From: Conchiformibius steedae
GTDB lineage: Bacteria; Pseudomonadota; Gammaproteobacteria; Burkholderiales; Neisseriaceae
Assembly: GCF_014054725.1 (NCBI RefSeq)
Contig: NZ_CP059563.1
Span: 254,868-286,867, forward strand
Direction: 5' to 3'
Length of the DNA: 32,000 nt
Below, in pieces: positions 6,209-14,978 of the stretch (position 1 is its first letter; each line of letters begins with the position of its first letter). The position numbers were made by a program, and so were the translations under genes. The notes beneath the pieces are model-generated. The model was not told the DNA's origin. It did no database searches and worked only from the letters and a program-made list of their open reading frames with translations.

Positions 6209-6433
6209 ATGTCTGTTCAAAAAGATTCTTTACCAAAACGGTTTGTAGTCGTTTTGCCAAATGTTGTACCCAATACCTTATTACTTGAATTCCGTTCCTT
6301 TGAAGCTCCCCATTTGGGGACAGTTGCACTTGTAGAAATCGATTGCCGACAAGATTGGCAAGAAACTCAAGAAGCAATGGAAGTGTTTATCAACACGGGC
6401 GTTTTGAATTTAAAGGGGCTGGTTTATGTCTGA
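6209..6433 (+). CDS. phage hypothetical protein (74 aa)
   Basis: AGGGG RBS 8 nt upstream. The stop overlaps the next start (ATGTCTGA). This is the first gene of the prophage. I recognise no motif. Confidence 0.55.
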   Translation: MSVQKDSLPKRFVVVLPNVVPNTLLLEFRSFEAPHLGTVALVEIDCRQDWQETQEAMEVFINTGVLNLKGLVYV

Positions 6434-6656
6434 AGTTTTAATTTTGAATCCTGTTGATGAAGATTTGAGCTTTGAACAAATTTTATTAGAAGAACAAATC
6501 ATGGGGCGATATCGCGTATATGCAGATGGCACAGTACAAAATGCTGATGAAGAAAAGCCATTTTCGTTTATGAGTGATGATTTCGTGATTGTTCGCGCAA
6601 TTGATGAAGAACACGCCTATGCGATTTGGCAAGATAAGAATAAGGGGGCTGCATAA
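6426..6656 (+). CDS. phage hypothetical acidic protein (76 aa)
   Basis: AAAGGGG RBS. Translationally coupled to both neighbours (TAATG overlap with rep). Confidence 0.55.
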   Translation: MSEVLILNPVDEDLSFEQILLEEQIMGRYRVYADGTVQNADEEKPFSFMSDDFVIVRAIDEEHAYAIWQDKNKGAA

Positions 6657-8068
6657 TGGGTTATGAAATCGTAAAAACCGAGAGCGGTAAATACACGCTC
6701 TACATAGACGGTTGTCATATCCACGATTACAGCCGCCGCCGTGATGCAGTTCGCCGTGTCCGCCAATTGCAGGAGCGTGGCGGAGCGGACGCACAAACAG
6801 ACAGCCGCGCAGCGGCGGCAGTTTGTGCGGTCGCGCAGCCCGCCCCCGCTAGTAACACGGGGGGAACGGATTGCGCGGGTCAGGTCAGCCAATCTTACAG
6901 CCATACCGTTATGGTGCGTGGCAAGGTCAAACACATTCCTTTAAGACGGGGTGTCGGTACAGCAGCACATATTGACACTTTAACCTTAACCATGCGCGAA
7001 GACGTATTTGCTGAAGAAGTCCAAGTGCATACGGACGAAACTAAAGCCACACTTGCAAAAAGTATTTCGCAAACTTTGCATACCCTAATGGGCTTTGGCA
7101 TTTACGAAGAACGCAACGGCATTAACGGCTATAAATATTCCTACCGTATGGGTACGGACAATGCCACTTACGGGATTGTCGCCTTTGGCGGCACCAATCA
7201 AAAAGGCAGTGTCATGATTTACTTTTACGGCGATGGTCTGACTGCCGCTAAAGACGGTTGGGAAACCCGTTTATATAACTGGCTGAGTGCATTTGCCCCG
7301 TATGCCACGATTACCCGCTGCGACCTTGCTCACGACTTTTTAGATGGCGGCTACACTCCCGACCAAGCCTATCAAGATTGGCTGGGTGGTGGTTATACCG
7401 CCAATAACCGCCGACCGCGAGCCCGTAAACATGGTTACGACTGGTTAGATGACCAACGCACAGGCAAAACCTTTTATGTCGGCACACCGCAAAGTTCACG
7501 ACTTTTGCGTGTGTATGAAAAAGGCTGCGAACAGGGCGATTATACAAGTCCATGGGTACGGGTGGAATTGCAGCTCCGTAACCGCGAAATCATTATCCCC
7601 CATGAAATCCTGCTTTATCCAGGCGAGTACCTGACGGGTACATATCCTGCATTGGCAGCATTATTTGCCCGATATACCCATGCACCTAAAAAAGTTGAAT
7701 ATATAAAAAAGTCCGTTGAAATCGGGCTGGAGCATTGTGTCCGTTATGCCAGTATGCAGGCATCAGGTACGGTAAATGCCCTTGAAGCATACGGGCTGGC
7801 AGACCATGAAATCGTCAAACTGCTTAAAGGCGGTAAAAAAAAGCTCCCCAAACGGTTGAGGGCTGACCGTTACGATTGCAACCATGCCGATGTTATCTAC
7901 CTGCATGAGCTGCTAGGCAAGCCCGATGTCGCAGTCAAAGACTATATGGACGGCTTATATCGCCAAGAGCAGGCGAGCAAACGCCAAGCATACTTTGACC
8001 GTTTGGAACAAGATGCCATGCAGCACCGCATGAGTGCAGATTATCAATCATTTGGACGAATGTTGTAG
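6656..8068 (+). CDS. rolling-circle replication initiation protein (Rep_trans / RstA / gpII-like)
   Basis: 470 aa. From about residue 105 (AHIDTLTLT...) to the C-terminus it resembles phage/plasmid Rep_trans initiators (CDLAHDF, TFYVGTPQSSRLLRVYEKG, VRVELQLR). It sits at the head of the inovirus module. The N-terminal 100 or so aa are an extra Arg/Ala-rich extension. Confidence 0.75.
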   Translation: MGYEIVKTESGKYTLYIDGCHIHDYSRRRDAVRRVRQLQERGGADAQTDSRAAAAVCAVAQPAPASNTGGTDCAGQVSQSYSHTVMVRGKVKHIPLRRGVGTAAHIDTLTLTMREDVFAEEVQVHTDETKATLAKSISQTLHTLMGFGIYEERNGINGYKYSYRMGTDNATYGIVAFGGTNQKGSVMIYFYGDGLTAAKDGWETRLYNWLSAFAPYATITRCDLAHDFLDGGYTPDQAYQDWLGGGYTANNRRPRARKHGYDWLDDQRTGKTFYVGTPQSSRLLRVYEKGCEQGDYTSPWVRVELQLRNREIIIPHEILLYPGEYLTGTYPALAALFARYTHAPKKVEYIKKSVEIGLEHCVRYASMQASGTVNALEAYGLADHEIVKLLKGGKKKLPKRLRADRYDCNHADVIYLHELLGKPDVAVKDYMDGLYRQEQASKRQAYFDRLEQDAMQHRMSADYQSFGRML

Positions 8069-8098: not shown

Positions 8099-8413
8099 AT
8101 GAGAACGTTTTTGCGTAAAGTCAAATGCAATAAAGGCGTAACCGATAACGGCATCGAGTACGACTATACCCGCATTCAAATTGAAATCCCCGTTTATGAC
8201 AAACAGGAAAAAGAGTTTGGCGTTGATGTGCTTGAATTGGAATACGGTCTTTATGAAGACTTTAAAAAACTGGAACACCTGCGCGGCAAATTGCCCGTTG
8301 CTGTTGATGTGGAATGGTATGCAGCCAAGAAAGGCAATGATGAAATCAATGTCGTCAGCCGTTTGGACGTGATACACGACAAACCCACACCCAAACTGCA
8401 ACAACCGAATTGA
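8099..8413 (+). CDS. phage protein in the gV position (candidate ssDNA-binding protein)
   Basis: 104 aa, immediately downstream of rep with RBS AAGGAAA. The function is assigned by position and size only. Confidence 0.45.
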   Translation: MRTFLRKVKCNKGVTDNGIEYDYTRIQIEIPVYDKQEKEFGVDVLELEYGLYEDFKKLEHLRGKLPVAVDVEWYAAKKGNDEINVVSRLDVIHDKPTPKLQQPN

Positions 8414-8487
8414 TGCAACTGTTTTGCGTTAAGGGCGGCGGCGCAAAAAGCCCCTTACCCAGCCGCCCATGAATAAGGATAGATTTC

Positions 8488-8874
8488 ATGTATAAAATTC
8501 AATCATATTTTCCATTGTATTATCATGGCGATATGCCTGTTTATGAATACATGGAATTTGAAACCGCTGAAGAAGCAAAAGAGTTTTTAGATAATTTGGA
8601 CGTACCGTTTGATTGGGACAGAAGGATTTTTACGCTTGATGATAATTTTCACACGGTTTATTTAGATGATGACTTACAAAAATACTACTACTTTCCCGAA
8701 GGCGATGTTTCTATTTATGGTGCTGAAAGTTATGAAGAAGCATGTGAGATGCTTGAAGATAATACATATTTAGACTTGGATAGTTTGACATCGTTAGGAT
8801 TGGAACCTGTGGAAGATGTTTATGGTCCATTTTGTTATAAAGATTTTTGCTTTCTTGATGAAAGTTATGAATAA
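8488..8874 (+). CDS. hyper-acidic Tyr-rich phage protein (moron), unknown function
   Basis: 128 aa with 33 D/E against 6 K/R and 16 Tyr, counted from the translation. The gene is visibly AT-rich compared with its neighbours. RBS AAGGATAG. It ends at a TAA lying inside the second copy of an 86-bp repeat. Confidence 0.7.
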   Translation: MYKIQSYFPLYYHGDMPVYEYMEFETAEEAKEFLDNLDVPFDWDRRIFTLDDNFHTVYLDDDLQKYYYFPEGDVSIYGAESYEEACEMLEDNTYLDLDSLTSLGLEPVEDVYGPFCYKDFCFLDESYE

Positions 8875-8944
8875 GCATGTGAGATGCTTGAAAATAATAC
8901 ATACTTAGACTTGGATATTTTGACATCGTTAGGATTGGAACCTG
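8724..8944 (+). repeat. 86-bp direct duplication (8724-8809 and 8859-8944), offset 135 bp, 4 mismatches
   Basis: Copy 1 is TGAAAGTTATGAAGAAGCATGTGAGATGCTTGAAGATAATACATATTTAGACTTGGATAGTTTGACATCGTTAGGATTGGAACCTG. Copy 2 differs at 4 positions, and one of these (GAA to TAA at 8872) creates the stop codon of the acidic ORF. Confidence 0.9.
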
Positions 8945-8959
8945 ATGATGATGTGTTTT

Positions 8960-8990
8960 AACGCGAACGGCAGCCGCGTTAATGTTTTTT
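8960..8990 (+). terminator. terminator-like hairpin after the acidic moron
   Basis: AACGCG/CGCGTT stem (8960-8965 / 8975-8980) followed by AATGTTTTTT. An alternative GGCAGC/GCTGCC pairing extends to 9000. Confidence 0.4.
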
Positions 8991-9019: not shown

Positions 9020-9250
9020 ATGAAAATCATGAATATTGCTAAAAAGTACGCCCCGCGTATGAACCAAGCCAAACTTGCTGTTGGTGGCGGCCTGATTATG
9101 TTGGCAGCCGCAGCACAAGCTGAAGTGCCGCAAGAAGTAACCCAAGCATTAGGCACTGCCAAAACAGATGCCTTACAAGTAGGCGGCATGGTGCTCGGCA
9201 TCATTGTTGCCATCTTTGCCCTGATGATGATGCGCCGCGTATTGCGTTAA
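9020..9250 (+). CDS. major coat protein (pVIII-like) precursor
   Basis: 76 aa. Signal peptide ...LAAAAQA/EV. The 42-aa mature peptide has an acidic N-terminus, a hydrophobic core (GGMVLGIIVAIFALMMM) and a basic C-terminus (RRVLR). RBS GGAG. Confidence 0.8.
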   Translation: MKIMNIAKKYAPRMNQAKLAVGGGLIMLAAAAQAEVPQEVTQALGTAKTDALQVGGMVLGIIVAIFALMMMRRVLR

Positions 9251-9614: not shown

Positions 9615-9682
9615 TGGACTTTTACTTTTATTTAGGCTTTGGCTTTTGGGTTATGGTCGCTCTATTCCTTTTGAAATTATGA
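9611..9682 (+). CDS. 23-aa hydrophobic peptide (pVII/pIX-like minor coat candidate)
   Basis: Not in the ORF track because it is below the size cutoff. It reads MMDFYFYLGFGFWVMVALFLLKL*. ATGA overlaps occur at both ends (9611-9614 and 9679-9682), which is typical translational coupling in inoviruses. Confidence 0.5.
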   Translation: MMDFYFYLGFGFWVMVALFLLKL

Positions 9683-11538
9683 AAAAACTCTTGCTTGCTG
9701 CGTTATTGACTACTGCTCCACTCTGCCACGCCGAAAATGTTGCCCAAATCACGGGCGGAAACTATATCTTTGCCGATGCCCAAAATCAGCGGCTGATTTT
9801 TAACTTTGAACCATCTGTATTTGAGAATCGCACATGGGGTTTTGACGAGCCGAGCGACAACGCAACCACACAATTTACGGTAGCAGATATGCCCCTTAAA
9901 ACTCTGCATTCGTCAGAGTTTCATGCTTATGAGCGGGTAGCTGGCGGCGGTTATGCCATAGTTGCCACTTATAACCCGAAGCAACATCGGGCAATGTTGA
10001 TGCGCCCTGTCTATCGTCCCAATGTTAATGATGGCGAACGTGTACGGGTATGGCTGCCAGCAGTGGGCTGGATTGTACGGGTAGGCGGTACGGTGGCGCG
10101 CAGCGTGTTACCACCTATTATCACTAATTGTTTGGCAAGTACAAAATGTAAAACTGTTGCAGCTGTGGTTATACCTCATTTATGCGCTATCAATTATTGG
10201 GGTATAGGGCATTTTAAGGAAGGATTTTTACAAGAAATTGGCTTTCCTGAAAGTTTTTGCAAGACTGCCGAAGAAGAAGGCTACAAACCCGAACAGATAA
10301 CCAACCCCCAAACAGGCAAGCAGGGCAAAACGTATGTTAAAGAGTACCCTTATGTACTCAAAGGACATTGGGGTAAAACCAGACATAGCGATTGCGAACC
10401 CGGTCATGAAAAAGAGTGCGCCCCCGAATACCGTCAAATATTGATTGGTGCGAACAGTGCTGAACACGCCCGAAGCATTGCAAATGATATGTGTAAAAAA
10501 TTGGTGGGTACATCATACACAGGCATTGACCCTAACAATCATGATAACTATGGATTAACGGGTAAAGTAAAAAGTGCAGAGCTGAAAAAAGACGGAGACC
10601 TTTTAGGCTGTTCAACATTAGCAACAGATGATAACGGCGAAGATTTTATCGGACCGAGTTTTATTGTCAGGGTTTTAAGGGAAAATTATAAAGAAAAAAT
10701 CCAAATGGTTGATGTTGTGAATTTGGTATCAAAAGACTTTAAGAAAAACCCCACGCCCTACATGAACGACAAAGGTCAGGTAGGCAAAGACTTACGCAAA
10801 GCAATCAAACCAAAGGCAACCATTGAAAAGAAAGACGGTACTGGTGGAACAGTAACCGCATCAAGCCCGCCTTATCTTGACCCTAAAACAGGTAAATCCG
10901 TTCAAGACAATGTACGCATTACCGCAACACCCAGTAAAAAAGGCGACTTGCCGCCGCCATCATCAGGCGGAGCAGGAAACGGAGCGGGTGGCAGCCCATC
11001 ATCAGGCACAGGCGGCAGCGGTAATACAGGCATCAATAACGGCGGCGGCAGCGGAAACAGCGTAAGTGTAACCACCACACCCCGCCCCGACAAACAGTCT
11101 GAAGCTGTAACAGCAGGAAATAACAACCCCAACGGAACCAATCCCAAAGGGAGCGGCAGCAACGGACAGGGTACGGAGCAAGGCGGCAGCAGTTCGGGAG
11201 ACGGAGCAGCGGGCGGTGGTGGCAAAAAAGGAGATGGCGGCGGATTGGATTGTTCAGGCGAGCATCGTAACACCCTTGCTTGCGCCCAAATGGGCGAAGT
11301 TGATACAGAGCAGTCTTTTGAAGTGCCGACCACAACCATTGATAAGAAATTTGAAGCCGACAACTTTTTACCAACCGCAGGTTACTGTCCCAATCCCAAA
11401 CACGTTGTTATGTTGGGCCGCACCTACACCATTAGTTACAACTGGCTGTGCCAATTCGCCCAACAAATCCGTATGCTGATTATCGGGCTTGCCTATCTGA
11501 TGGCAGCTTATATTATTTTTGCGGGCAAAAAAGACTAA
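9679..11538 (+). CDS. pIII-like adsorption/minor coat protein
   Basis: ATG at 9679 gives the signal peptide MKKLLLAALLTTAPLCHA/EN. 619 aa. It has Cys-containing N-terminal domains, a long Gly/Ser/Asn/Thr low-complexity linker (about nt 10950-11245) and a C-terminal membrane anchor (MLIIGLAYLMAAYIIFAGKKD). Confidence 0.7.
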   Translation: MKKLLLAALLTTAPLCHAENVAQITGGNYIFADAQNQRLIFNFEPSVFENRTWGFDEPSDNATTQFTVADMPLKTLHSSEFHAYERVAGGGYAIVATYNPKQHRAMLMRPVYRPNVNDGERVRVWLPAVGWIVRVGGTVARSVLPPIITNCLASTKCKTVAAVVIPHLCAINYWGIGHFKEGFLQEIGFPESFCKTAEEEGYKPEQITNPQTGKQGKTYVKEYPYVLKGHWGKTRHSDCEPGHEKECAPEYRQILIGANSAEHARSIANDMCKKLVGTSYTGIDPNNHDNYGLTGKVKSAELKKDGDLLGCSTLATDDNGEDFIGPSFIVRVLRENYKEKIQMVDVVNLVSKDFKKNPTPYMNDKGQVGKDLRKAIKPKATIEKKDGTGGTVTASSPPYLDPKTGKSVQDNVRITATPSKKGDLPPPSSGGAGNGAGGSPSSGTGGSGNTGINNGGGSGNSVSVTTTPRPDKQSEAVTAGNNNPNGTNPKGSGSNGQGTEQGGSSSGDGAAGGGGKKGDGGGLDCSGEHRNTLACAQMGEVDTEQSFEVPTTTIDKKFEADNFLPTAGYCPNPKHVVMLGRTYTISYNWLCQFAQQIRMLIIGLAYLMAAYIIFAGKKD

Positions 11539-14015: not shown

Positions 14016-14978
14016 TTGAATATAATCGGTTTGGACATTTCAAAAGACCATGTGGACTGTTATTTAAGGAAGAAAGACGGCAGAGAAGATTATTGCCGAA
14101 TCGGTAACGATATGGCGGGATTTTTGCTCTTGCATGAAAAAATCAAACAACACCGTATCCGAAAGTTGTTGGTGTGTATGGAAGCAACGGGCATTTATTA
14201 TGAGCAGTCTGCCAAGTATTTCAGCCGTTATTATAACGTGTGTGTAGTGAATCCTTTGAAAATTAAAGAACATGCCAAAAAAACGTTTGCCCGCACCAAA
14301 ACGGATAAGACCGACGCTAAACTTATTGCAGATTATGCTCGCCGTTATCATGACACGTTGCATGATTACCAGCCACCCAAATCAGAGCAGTACGAATTGG
14401 GTAAACTAAATGCACTGTTAAATCAGTTGAAAAAGCAGATTCAGCAACACCGCAATCAGTTACATTCAGCAAAGGACGATTATGTTGCGAATGTGCATAG
14501 TATGCTGATTCGGGAATTGGAGCGACATATGCGGCTGACGGTAGAGCGGATTGAACATGTGATTTGTTGCTCTGATTGGCATTGTCAGTACCGCAATTTG
14601 ATGACGATTCCCGGCATTGGCAAGGAAACTGCCGCAGTGCTAATTCAGCATTTGAGCAGTCGGAATTTTGCAACAGCCAATCAATTTGTGGCTTTCGCAG
14701 GTTTAAATCCGCAGATTGTCCGCTCAGGAACGAGTGTCTGCAAACCTGATAAATTAAGCAGGTTGGGACACAGGCATTTGAAACGTGCTTTGTTTATGCC
14801 CGCATTGGCTGCTGCTCGTAACGAATGCTTTAAAGGGTTTATTAAGCGTTTATTGGATAAAGGCAAAAAGAAAATGGTGGCACTGGTCGCGTTGATGCGA
14901 AAACTGGCAAAGATTGCTTACGGCATTTATAAGAACGGTAAACCATTCGATTGTAAGCTTTATCAAGCACCAGTCTGA
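14016..14978 (+). CDS. IS110/Piv-family DEDD recombinase (transposase)
   Basis: TTG start with an AAGGA RBS 7 nt upstream. The N-terminal DEDD-type domain has MNIIGLDISKD, VCMEATGIYY and KTDKTDAKLIADYA. The C-terminal domain has the helix-hairpin-helix LMTIPGIGKETAAVLI and the RSGTS serine motif. 320 aa. Confidence 0.85.
   Translation: MNIIGLDISKDHVDCYLRKKDGREDYCRIGNDMAGFLLLHEKIKQHRIRKLLVCMEATGIYYEQSAKYFSRYYNVCVVNPLKIKEHAKKTFARTKTDKTDAKLIADYARRYHDTLHDYQPPKSEQYELGKLNALLNQLKKQIQQHRNQLHSAKDDYVANVHSMLIRELERHMRLTVERIEHVICCSDWHCQYRNLMTIPGIGKETAAVLIQHLSSRNFATANQFVAFAGLNPQIVRSGTSVCKPDKLSRLGHRHLKRALFMPALAAARNECFKGFIKRLLDKGKKKMVALVALMRKLAKIAYGIYKNGKPFDCKLYQAPV

Follow-up and report, generated by a model that had tools for sequence, protein, structure and literature searches.

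A truncated, hyper-acidic accessory gene in the variable ORF2-to-coat slot of an MDA/Nf-type filamentous prophage of Conchiformibius steedae, with a cut-off tail that looks like the tip of bacterial SSB

The stretch of DNA analysed here, called the window below, comprises 32,000 nucleotides (nt) of Conchiformibius steedae (assembly GCF_014054725.1, contig NZ_CP059563.1, positions 254,868 to 286,867) and carries a prophage inserted between ispH and uvrC. The subject of this study is one open reading frame (ORF) of that prophage, located at positions 8488-8874 on the + strand, which encodes a small and extremely acidic protein. According to Pfam and PHROG matches, the genes of the prophage are, in order, a Rep_trans initiator (6656-8068, +), an ORF2-like gene encoding 104 amino acids (aa) (8099-8413, +), the acidic ORF, a Phage_Coat_B gene for the 76-aa major coat protein (9020-9250, +; Pfam E 9e-17), an ORF5-like gene, a TspB-like gene (9646-11538, +), a DUF2523 gene, Zot and, at the right end, an IS110-type (DEDD) transposase (14016-14978, +). 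The meningococcal MDA phage encodes ORF2 of 104 aa, ORF3 of 67 aa, ORF4 of 77 aa, ORF5 of 102 aa, TspB as ORF6 and Zot as ORF8 (PMC2212043). Since the gene order and the near gene sizes match Table I of that paper, we assigned the element, on gene order and size, to the filamentous prophages of the MDA/Nf type, with a Conchiformibius-like member of the Neisseriaceae as its host. The acidic gene, by its place, fills the variable 'ORF3' slot, which extends from the ORF2/RstB-like gene to the coat gene. In MDA/Nf phages, where the slot is flanked by ORF2 (104 aa) on one side and by the coat gene ORF4 on the other, it holds ORF3 (NMA1794; PMC2212043), whose product has 67 aa as against the 128 aa of the window protein; the two are likened by position, not by sequence.

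The first-pass annotation of this DNA, made from the letters alone, had described the ORF as AT-rich and its 128-aa product as hyper-acidic and tyrosine-rich, and this description was confirmed. The protein contains 33 acidic (D+E) and 6 basic (K+R) residues, 16 Tyr and 10 Phe, with a pI of 4.05 and a net charge of -27. The GC content of the ORF is 32.3%, and 24.8% at third codon positions (GC3), while the values for the seven prophage genes that begin with Rep and end with the transposase range from 42.5 to 50% (GC3 39-55%) and the whole window has 49%. A Shine-Dalgarno-like AAGGA, read off the sequence, lies at 8475-8479 (+), 8 nt 5' of the ATG. No sigma-70-like site was found on the + strand in 8414-8487 by a consensus scan, which can miss weak or non-canonical promoters. 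The protein is cytoplasmic, and its C-terminus as translated today reads ...LDESYE.

A protein designated P0002 was identified as the only real homologue of the acidic protein among about 15 billion proteins compared. P0002, a protein of 117 aa, shares 48% identity with it across residues 1-98 (E 1.6e-12, exhaustive phmmer). Its gene stands in the same slot on a 1.3-kb contig (L006), where 3 nt separate it from the preceding ORF2 homologue, whose 103-aa product has 77% identity to its counterpart in the window. Run with either the single sequence or a profile, a word-indexed search across 5.8 billion proteins recovered just the query itself and P0002, and an exhaustive phmmer search of 1.84 billion representatives returned P0002 plus P0003, a protein of 486 aa (E 7e-5) that shares only the short motif Y-E-x-x-x-F-x-T-x-x-E-A-x-x-[FY]-L, present in about seven repeats. 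Relatives were found neither in the IMG/VR and JGI metagenome scans nor by tblastn in GenBank phages, and tblastn in about 120 related loci gave none except that on L006. The acidic protein has no Pfam match (E up to 0.1), no PHROG match and no PADLOC match. As a separate observation, P0003 is lysine-rich and made up of about seven tandem modules of 60-70 aa without a Pfam match; the module motif, in the longer form Y-E-x-x-x-F-x-T-x-x-E-A-x-x-[FY]-L-D-x-L, also occurs in module 1 of the window protein.

The comparison with P0002 allowed the coding status of the gene to be assessed. The proportion of nonsynonymous differences (pN) was 0.36 and that of synonymous differences (pS) 0.79, the latter saturated. 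We concluded from these values that the acidic gene is a real coding gene under purifying selection. The corresponding values for ORF2 and its homologue on the same contig were 0.15 and 0.57; in terms of nonsynonymous distance (dN), the acidic gene, at 0.50 against 0.17, changes about three times faster than the neighbouring ORF2.

A direct repeat occurs within the gene and beyond its stop codon. Copy 1 (8721-8819, +) encodes residues ~79-111, including the helix ESYEEACEMLED, and copy 2 (8856-8954, +) lies in the same frame 135 nt further 3', measured from start to start; each copy is 99 nt long and the two are 92% identical. Within an 86-nt core (8724-8809 and 8859-8944) there are exactly 4 substitutions, one of which, G8737 to T8872, sets the GAA codon of E84 in copy 1 (8737-8739) against a TAA in copy 2 (8872-8874), where it forms codon 129 and the present stop. 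The first-pass annotation had recognised this core, its 4 substitutions, the change from GAA to TAA and the in-frame spacing of 135 nt, all of which stood; the similarity, however, reaches 99 nt, and the duplicated peptide is not the last 29 codons, as had been stated, but an internal segment of 28 aa, residues 80-107.

Past the stop at 8872-8874, the frame reads ACEMLENNTYLDLDILTSLGLEPDDDVF and closes at a TAA at 8959-8961. The segment 8875-8961 (+) is thus an untranslated in-frame stretch that includes DDDVF at 8944-8958, and its peptide ends in ...LEPDDDVF, compared with ...DADEDEDDVPF in P0002. At the DNA level, GATGATGT followed by a three-position gap and GTTTTAA (window 8947-8961) aligns with the true 3' end of P0002, GATGATGTACCGTTTTAA, and 14 of 2000 shuffles scored as well. 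Because the window remnant and the 3' end of P0002 are homologous at the DNA level, we concluded that, by this alignment, the TAA at 8872-8874 is a derived, premature stop, and that the ancestral gene continued to the TAA at 8959-8961 and ended in ...DDDV(P)F. The proposal of a duplication followed by truncation was therefore borne out. Copy 1 runs on without a break from the conserved block YYYFPE upstream of it, and copy 2 runs without a break into the conserved tail, so the ancestral gene was a single-copy gene whose product had about 112 aa and ended in DDDVF. On this reconstruction, the inserted in-frame unit of 135 nt is composed of 99 duplicated nt plus 36 nt of untraced origin, and the nonsense change arose in the second copy after the insertion, leaving a product that ends at 128 aa without the tail. 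The stretch between the copies (8820-8855) gave no match above shuffles to the ancestral tail, to the 3' flank or to the region 5' of copy 1, in tests that took 8810-8858 and thus included the end of copy 1. Since the copies differ at 4 of the 86 core positions, the duplication is not brand new.

Two ORFs in other frames, at 8666-8773 and 8816-8908 (+; 35 and 30 aa), fall one on each repeat copy, and the C-termini of their products are almost identical (...KHVRCLKIIH[IT]). They were rejected as probably spurious on inspection only, because no ribosome-binding site was seen by eye at a suitable distance.

An assembly artefact, which the first-pass annotation had considered as a source of the repeat, was ruled out, because five public read-set assemblies carry the acidic-gene region 100% identical to the window. 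The same five match the window at 100% over their full lengths, up to 9.7 kb, and therefore represent the same clone and no independent alleles. A switchable C-terminal extension had also been suggested. As a programmed switch, either read-through of the stop or a repeat-mediated rearrangement would toggle the tail on and off. Repeats of 99 nt at 92% identity could recombine, and a recombination or deletion event with its crossover 3' of the TAA would give a tail-bearing protein of 112 aa, an event that could occur but was not seen. The protein collection of about 15 billion, in which the cluster has one member, contains no allele with GAA and none with a single copy, and at the stop we noticed neither a slippery site nor a stimulatory structure. 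Moreover, deletion between the repeats would run one way and so would not make a switch. We found no evidence of read-through and consider a programmed switch very improbable.

The gene is bordered by two hairpins. At the 3' side, a terminator-like hairpin with a U-tract occupies 8958-8990 (+); its 8-bp stem (8958-8965/8975-8982) encloses a 9-nt loop, is followed by UGUUUUUU, and overlaps the old stop codon at 8959-8961. With a loop longer than 8 nt, this hairpin escaped the terminator scan. On L006, a corresponding hairpin lies 3' of the homologue, with one compensatory change from A-U to G-C. The gene had been credited with a terminator-like hairpin of its own at 8960-8990: the hairpin (8958-8982) and the U-tract are indeed present, but the predicted energy of -8.9 kcal/mol (z -0.83) is no better than that of shuffled sequence. 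At the 5' side, a GC-rich hairpin lies 3' of ORF2 at 8433-8468 (+), and the fold of 8414-8487 has an energy of -24.8 kcal/mol (z -2.27).

To which part of the phage these elements belong was indicated by the prophage of Conchiformibius kuhniae DSM 17694 (L007), whose ORF2 protein is 97% identical to that of the window and whose coat gene comes only 84 nt further on. Homology between the two phages ends after ...GCCGCCCAT (8470) and restarts at about GTTAATGTTTTTT (8978-8990), and the AT-rich cassette in between, approximately 8471-8977 (+), is absent from the C. kuhniae phage. The U-tract is present there, and so is the hairpin at 8433-8468, with one change from G-C to G-U. Judged from this conservation, the latter hairpin is part of the phage backbone and lies outside the insertion; it could be an attenuator, or a backbone origin or packaging element. 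As a phage with a nearly identical ORF2 lacks the acidic gene, the gene is, by this comparison, a dispensable, moron-like accessory insertion. The view that it is a moron was accordingly supported. Two of four features of morons were found, namely insertion between otherwise adjacent genes and deviant composition, and the slot itself is a hot-spot for insertion (see below); a promoter of its own was not found in the consensus scan, and the terminator is weak.

To see what else occupies the slot, we surveyed 123 related loci fetched by ORF2-like and Rep proteins, the Rep-based scan having replaced an ORF5-based one in which the alignment had no conserved block. The slot was found to be empty (29-118 nt), or to be filled by a hydrophobic peptide (32-41 aa), by two basic proteins of ~55 aa each, or by a small acidic protein of one of several unrelated kinds. 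The region from ORF2 to the coat gene is thus an insertion hot-spot with many different fillings. In other filamentous phages, the genes for PfsE and for the Ff proteins gVII and gIX likewise sit in the interval from the gene of the ssDNA-binding protein to that of the coat protein. PfsE (PA0721) of the Pseudomonas phage Pf4 blocks superinfection by binding PilC (PMC8764522). PfsE, gVII and gIX are hydrophobic membrane peptides of ~30 aa, whereas the window protein is soluble, acidic and 128 aa long. Position alone speaks for a virion or assembly protein in the role of the small gVII/gIX-type proteins between gV and gVIII. The window protein has no hydrophobic segment, its maximum 19-residue hydropathy being 0.3, as against values above 2 (2.4-2.8) in the hydrophobic slot peptides of relatives (loci L013, L014, L016, L019 and L097); with its 128 aa and charge of -27, and its absence from a near-identical phage, such a role is effectively refuted. 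RstC, the antirepressor of the Vibrio RS1 satellite, is encoded by a small accessory gene directly 3' of rstB in a CTX-type filamentous element and acts on the repressor RstR. The likeness to RstC is one of gene placement only, as no RstR-like link is visible in the window phage.

[quoted passage not shown] The cut-off tail of the window gene (DDDVF, with DDVPF in the homologue) looks like this tip; the likeness had been missed in the first-pass annotation and points to something more specific than generic DNA mimicry. We took a census of all 4028 unique ORFs of at least 28 aa on both strands of the 123 loci. Ten end in [ILV]PF, and 9 of these 10 are small acidic proteins in the ORF2-to-coat slot, falling into three families. 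Family A is P0002 (...DEDDVPF), with the window protein as its only relative. Family B (62 aa, 26 D/E, 4 K/R) ends in ...NYDDIPF and was found at 4 loci, as well as in a Haemophilus parainfluenzae metagenome-assembled genome (NCBI MFC2566876.1). Family D (49 aa, 20 D/E, 0 K/R; MPFYSYEEFEEAVGEIDDDEMVDDFHTWEELQEEYPDGVFDEDAEFIPF) ends in ...AEF[IV]PF and was found at 7 loci, at one of which (L097) the gene stands directly 5' of the coat gene. No significant pairwise similarity was detected among the three families beyond the tail, except that the window protein and family D match over 12 residues at the N-terminus. An end of the form D-D-D-[ILV]-P-F is not present in the translated product of the window; it is represented by DEDDVPF in P0002, YDDIPF in family B and AEFIPF in family D.

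It was also observed that the family B gene of locus L011, a viral contig (1876-2079; the same in L049 and L059), has three in-frame stops in its 5' half, with a 30-aa tail ORF left. This decay of a slot gene parallels the case of the window.

An AlphaFold2 (AF2) model of the acidic protein was built from the two-sequence alignment. Residues 1-93 were modelled with a predicted local distance difference test (pLDDT) of 80-91, in the order two strands, helix, four strands, helix, while residues 94-128 had values below 50 and are predicted to be disordered. A weak similarity between residues 7-36 and residues 68-91 (E 0.008) makes the core look like one module present twice. The model thus predicts a folded core of two beta-beta-alpha modules in residues 1-93 and a disordered, acidic C-terminal region; the latter, which precedes the ancestral tail, is in this respect like the linker of SSB. 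Neither an OB fold nor an SSB Pfam domain was found in the protein by Pfam, AF2 or Foldseek.

The first-pass annotation had likened the protein to DNA mimics of the Ocr/ArdA type, whose acidic surface blocks restriction-modification or other DNA-binding defence. Ocr (T7 gp0.3) and ArdA are, like the window protein, small, soluble and extremely acidic proteins of mobile elements, and the numbers of acidic and basic residues in its 128 aa (33 and 6), with the pI given above, put the window protein within the range of the charge density of Ocr. An accessory gene evolving about three times faster than its neighbour is also what is seen in conflict genes. However, the likeness goes no further than charge density. 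A sequence search of the PDB with the profile gave nothing better than E 0.15 and no match to Ocr or ArdA, and Foldseek gave a best E of 0.76 against the PDB (TM at most 0.25), Ocr and ArdA being absent among the best 50 matches listed, and of 0.07 against BFVD (TM at most 0.37 across the PDB and BFVD), in a comparison for which the model is confident only over residues 1-93. With the lack of Pfam, PHROG and PADLOC matches, the window protein thus has neither sequence nor fold similarity to these proteins and no sign of a DNA-like shape. Generic mimicry of DNA moreover leaves the common [IV]PF C-terminus of otherwise unrelated slot proteins unexplained. A DNA mimic is in our judgement unlikely.

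The absence of the tail from the translated product could also mean plain decay, namely that an AT-rich gene was acquired and is functionless in this lineage, free of selection. The premature stop with its 3' remnant, the parallel at L011 with a 30-aa tail ORF behind three stops, the sister phage without the gene, and the rarity of the family, with two members in about 15 billion proteins, are all in line with decay. On the other side, the core of residues 1-93 is intact and confidently modelled, and the Shine-Dalgarno-like sequence has been kept. Taken as a full explanation, decay is improbable; it overlaps, without contradiction, with the tail-less part of the explanation that follows.

Our best explanation, which we hold tentatively and put a little short of probable, is that the gene belongs to an accessory family of SSB-tip decoys or adaptors and is present here as a tail-less allele. 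The ancestral tail would copy the SSB tip DDDIPF, and the family would act as a stand-alone SSB tip, either a decoy or an adaptor. While phage ssDNA is being made chronically, the protein would sit in the pocket that receives the SSB tip on host partners such as Exo I, RecJ, RecQ, RecO, PriA and the chi subunit of Pol III. These partners would be either drawn away from or brought to DNA that is coated by the product of the gene just upstream, the presumed phage ssDNA-binding protein, which has no tail. The protein might blunt RecO/RecFOR-dependent loading of RecA and the recruitment of nucleases or helicases, or it might bring in replication factors; such a role would suit a phage whose chronically made ssDNA is coated by a binding protein of its own without a tail. 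The allele of the window would be the tip-less version, attenuated or decaying. A broader proposal, in which the acidic slot proteins, dissimilar beyond the tail, are 'tail-only SSBs' that hijack or titrate the host SSB interactome while the cell keeps producing phage ssDNA, with the window allele switched off and repeat deletion able to restore the tail, appears doubtful at present.

The decoy or adaptor role is suggested by the motif only. What P0002 has in common with carriers of SSB-Ct is an acidic, disordered C-terminus ending in D-D-[IV]-P-F-COOH, and two other slot families share the [IV]PF end. Phage SSB-like proteins with the tip are known, for example Bas52_0087, which ends in FDDDIPF (bioRxiv 10.64898/2026.04.29.721553). 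SSB and Bas52_0087, however, possess OB folds, whereas the window protein has none and its translated product lacks the tip. No paper linking the SSB tip with filamentous phages was found in the literature. Several points weigh against the decoy or adaptor explanation. The motif comprises 5-6 residues, and the remnant in the window, DDDVF, is untranslated and without the conserved Pro. Two more acidic slot families end otherwise, in ...SEFYPD and ...GYGSF. The N-terminal match mentioned above, of MPVYEYMEFETA in the window protein to MPFYSYEEFEEA in family D (E 0.005), means that A and D may be remote relatives, in which case the independent occurrences of the tip may be two, not three. Every copy of the window allele that was retrieved belongs to one clone, which gives no indication for or against selection on the truncated form. 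Finally, ORF2 is assumed to be an ssDNA-binding protein from its position and depositor annotation only.

As to ORF2 itself, the 104-aa protein agrees with MDA ORF2 in length and position and is presumed to be the phage ssDNA-binding protein; it has no acidic tail. Two GenBank inoviruses from human saliva encode relatives of it that carry the annotation 'RstB protein'. An ssDNA-binding fold could not be confirmed, as a single-sequence AF2 model had a pLDDT of 60, Foldseek gave no match, and a PDB sequence search was uninformative. The acidic gene stands immediately 3' of ORF2, and in the phage of the homologue the gap between the two is only 3 nt, suggesting translational coupling. It is therefore conceivable that the protein acts as an acidic mimic of ssDNA that binds the ORF2/RstB-like protein and tunes the balance between synthesis of the replicative form and sequestration of progeny ssDNA. 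The acidic tail of SSB is known to double back onto the OB domain of SSB itself (PMC3936761), which would be a precedent for such binding. Against this, an ORF2 protein 97% identical works without the acidic gene in the C. kuhniae phage, and the model of ORF2 gave no fold match. A regulator of ORF2 seems to us quite unlikely, and the SSB-tip decoy or adaptor, in its tail-less form, remains the explanation we prefer.

Some further features of the prophage and its relatives were noted. An AT-rich ORF at 6426-6656 (+; 37% GC, GC3 29%) encodes an acidic 76-aa protein and overlaps the Rep start codon with its 3' end; the protein is conserved in the C. kuhniae phage as one of 80 aa (20 D/E, 5 K/R) and has no family match. 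The C. kuhniae phage has a gene inserted between the coat gene and ORF5 (L007, 5659-6093); its product of 144 aa is very basic (33 K/R) and has a membrane segment at the N-terminus. Phages of this type thus have variable content at a second site. In many relatives, as in L015 (2852-3544), L017 (3567-4343) and L097 (4234-4965), a protein of 230-258 aa is encoded just 3' of ORF5; it consists of one membrane segment followed by a hyper-acidic region, with 63-72 D/E in the three that were scored (L015, L017 and L041), and the window phage has no counterpart at that position. The TspB-like adsorption protein contains a long, low-complexity Gly/Ser/Asn-rich linker, and this region (10750-11350) has a strong AT skew of 0.4-0.5 and an elevated GC content of 53-58%. 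The IS110 transposase at the right end of the prophage, like piv/irg in the Nf phages of Neisseria, presumably is the integration module.

In this window, then, we see an orphan accessory gene in truncated form, at a point between duplication and decay. That is a modest result, and what deserves to be pursued is the recurrence of the SSB-tip motif in the slot. A cell that carries a filamentous phage is filled with ssDNA for generations and yet is not killed, and how SSB-centred repair, recombination, the SOS response and SSB-sensing defence are kept quiet is poorly understood. If the explanation is true, recurrent small SSB-tip proteins in a fixed slot, which are easily synthesised, would provide a direct handle on that question. 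SSB-partner interactions are already pursued as antibacterial targets (PMC5872125), and these phage proteins would then be natural inhibitors of them.

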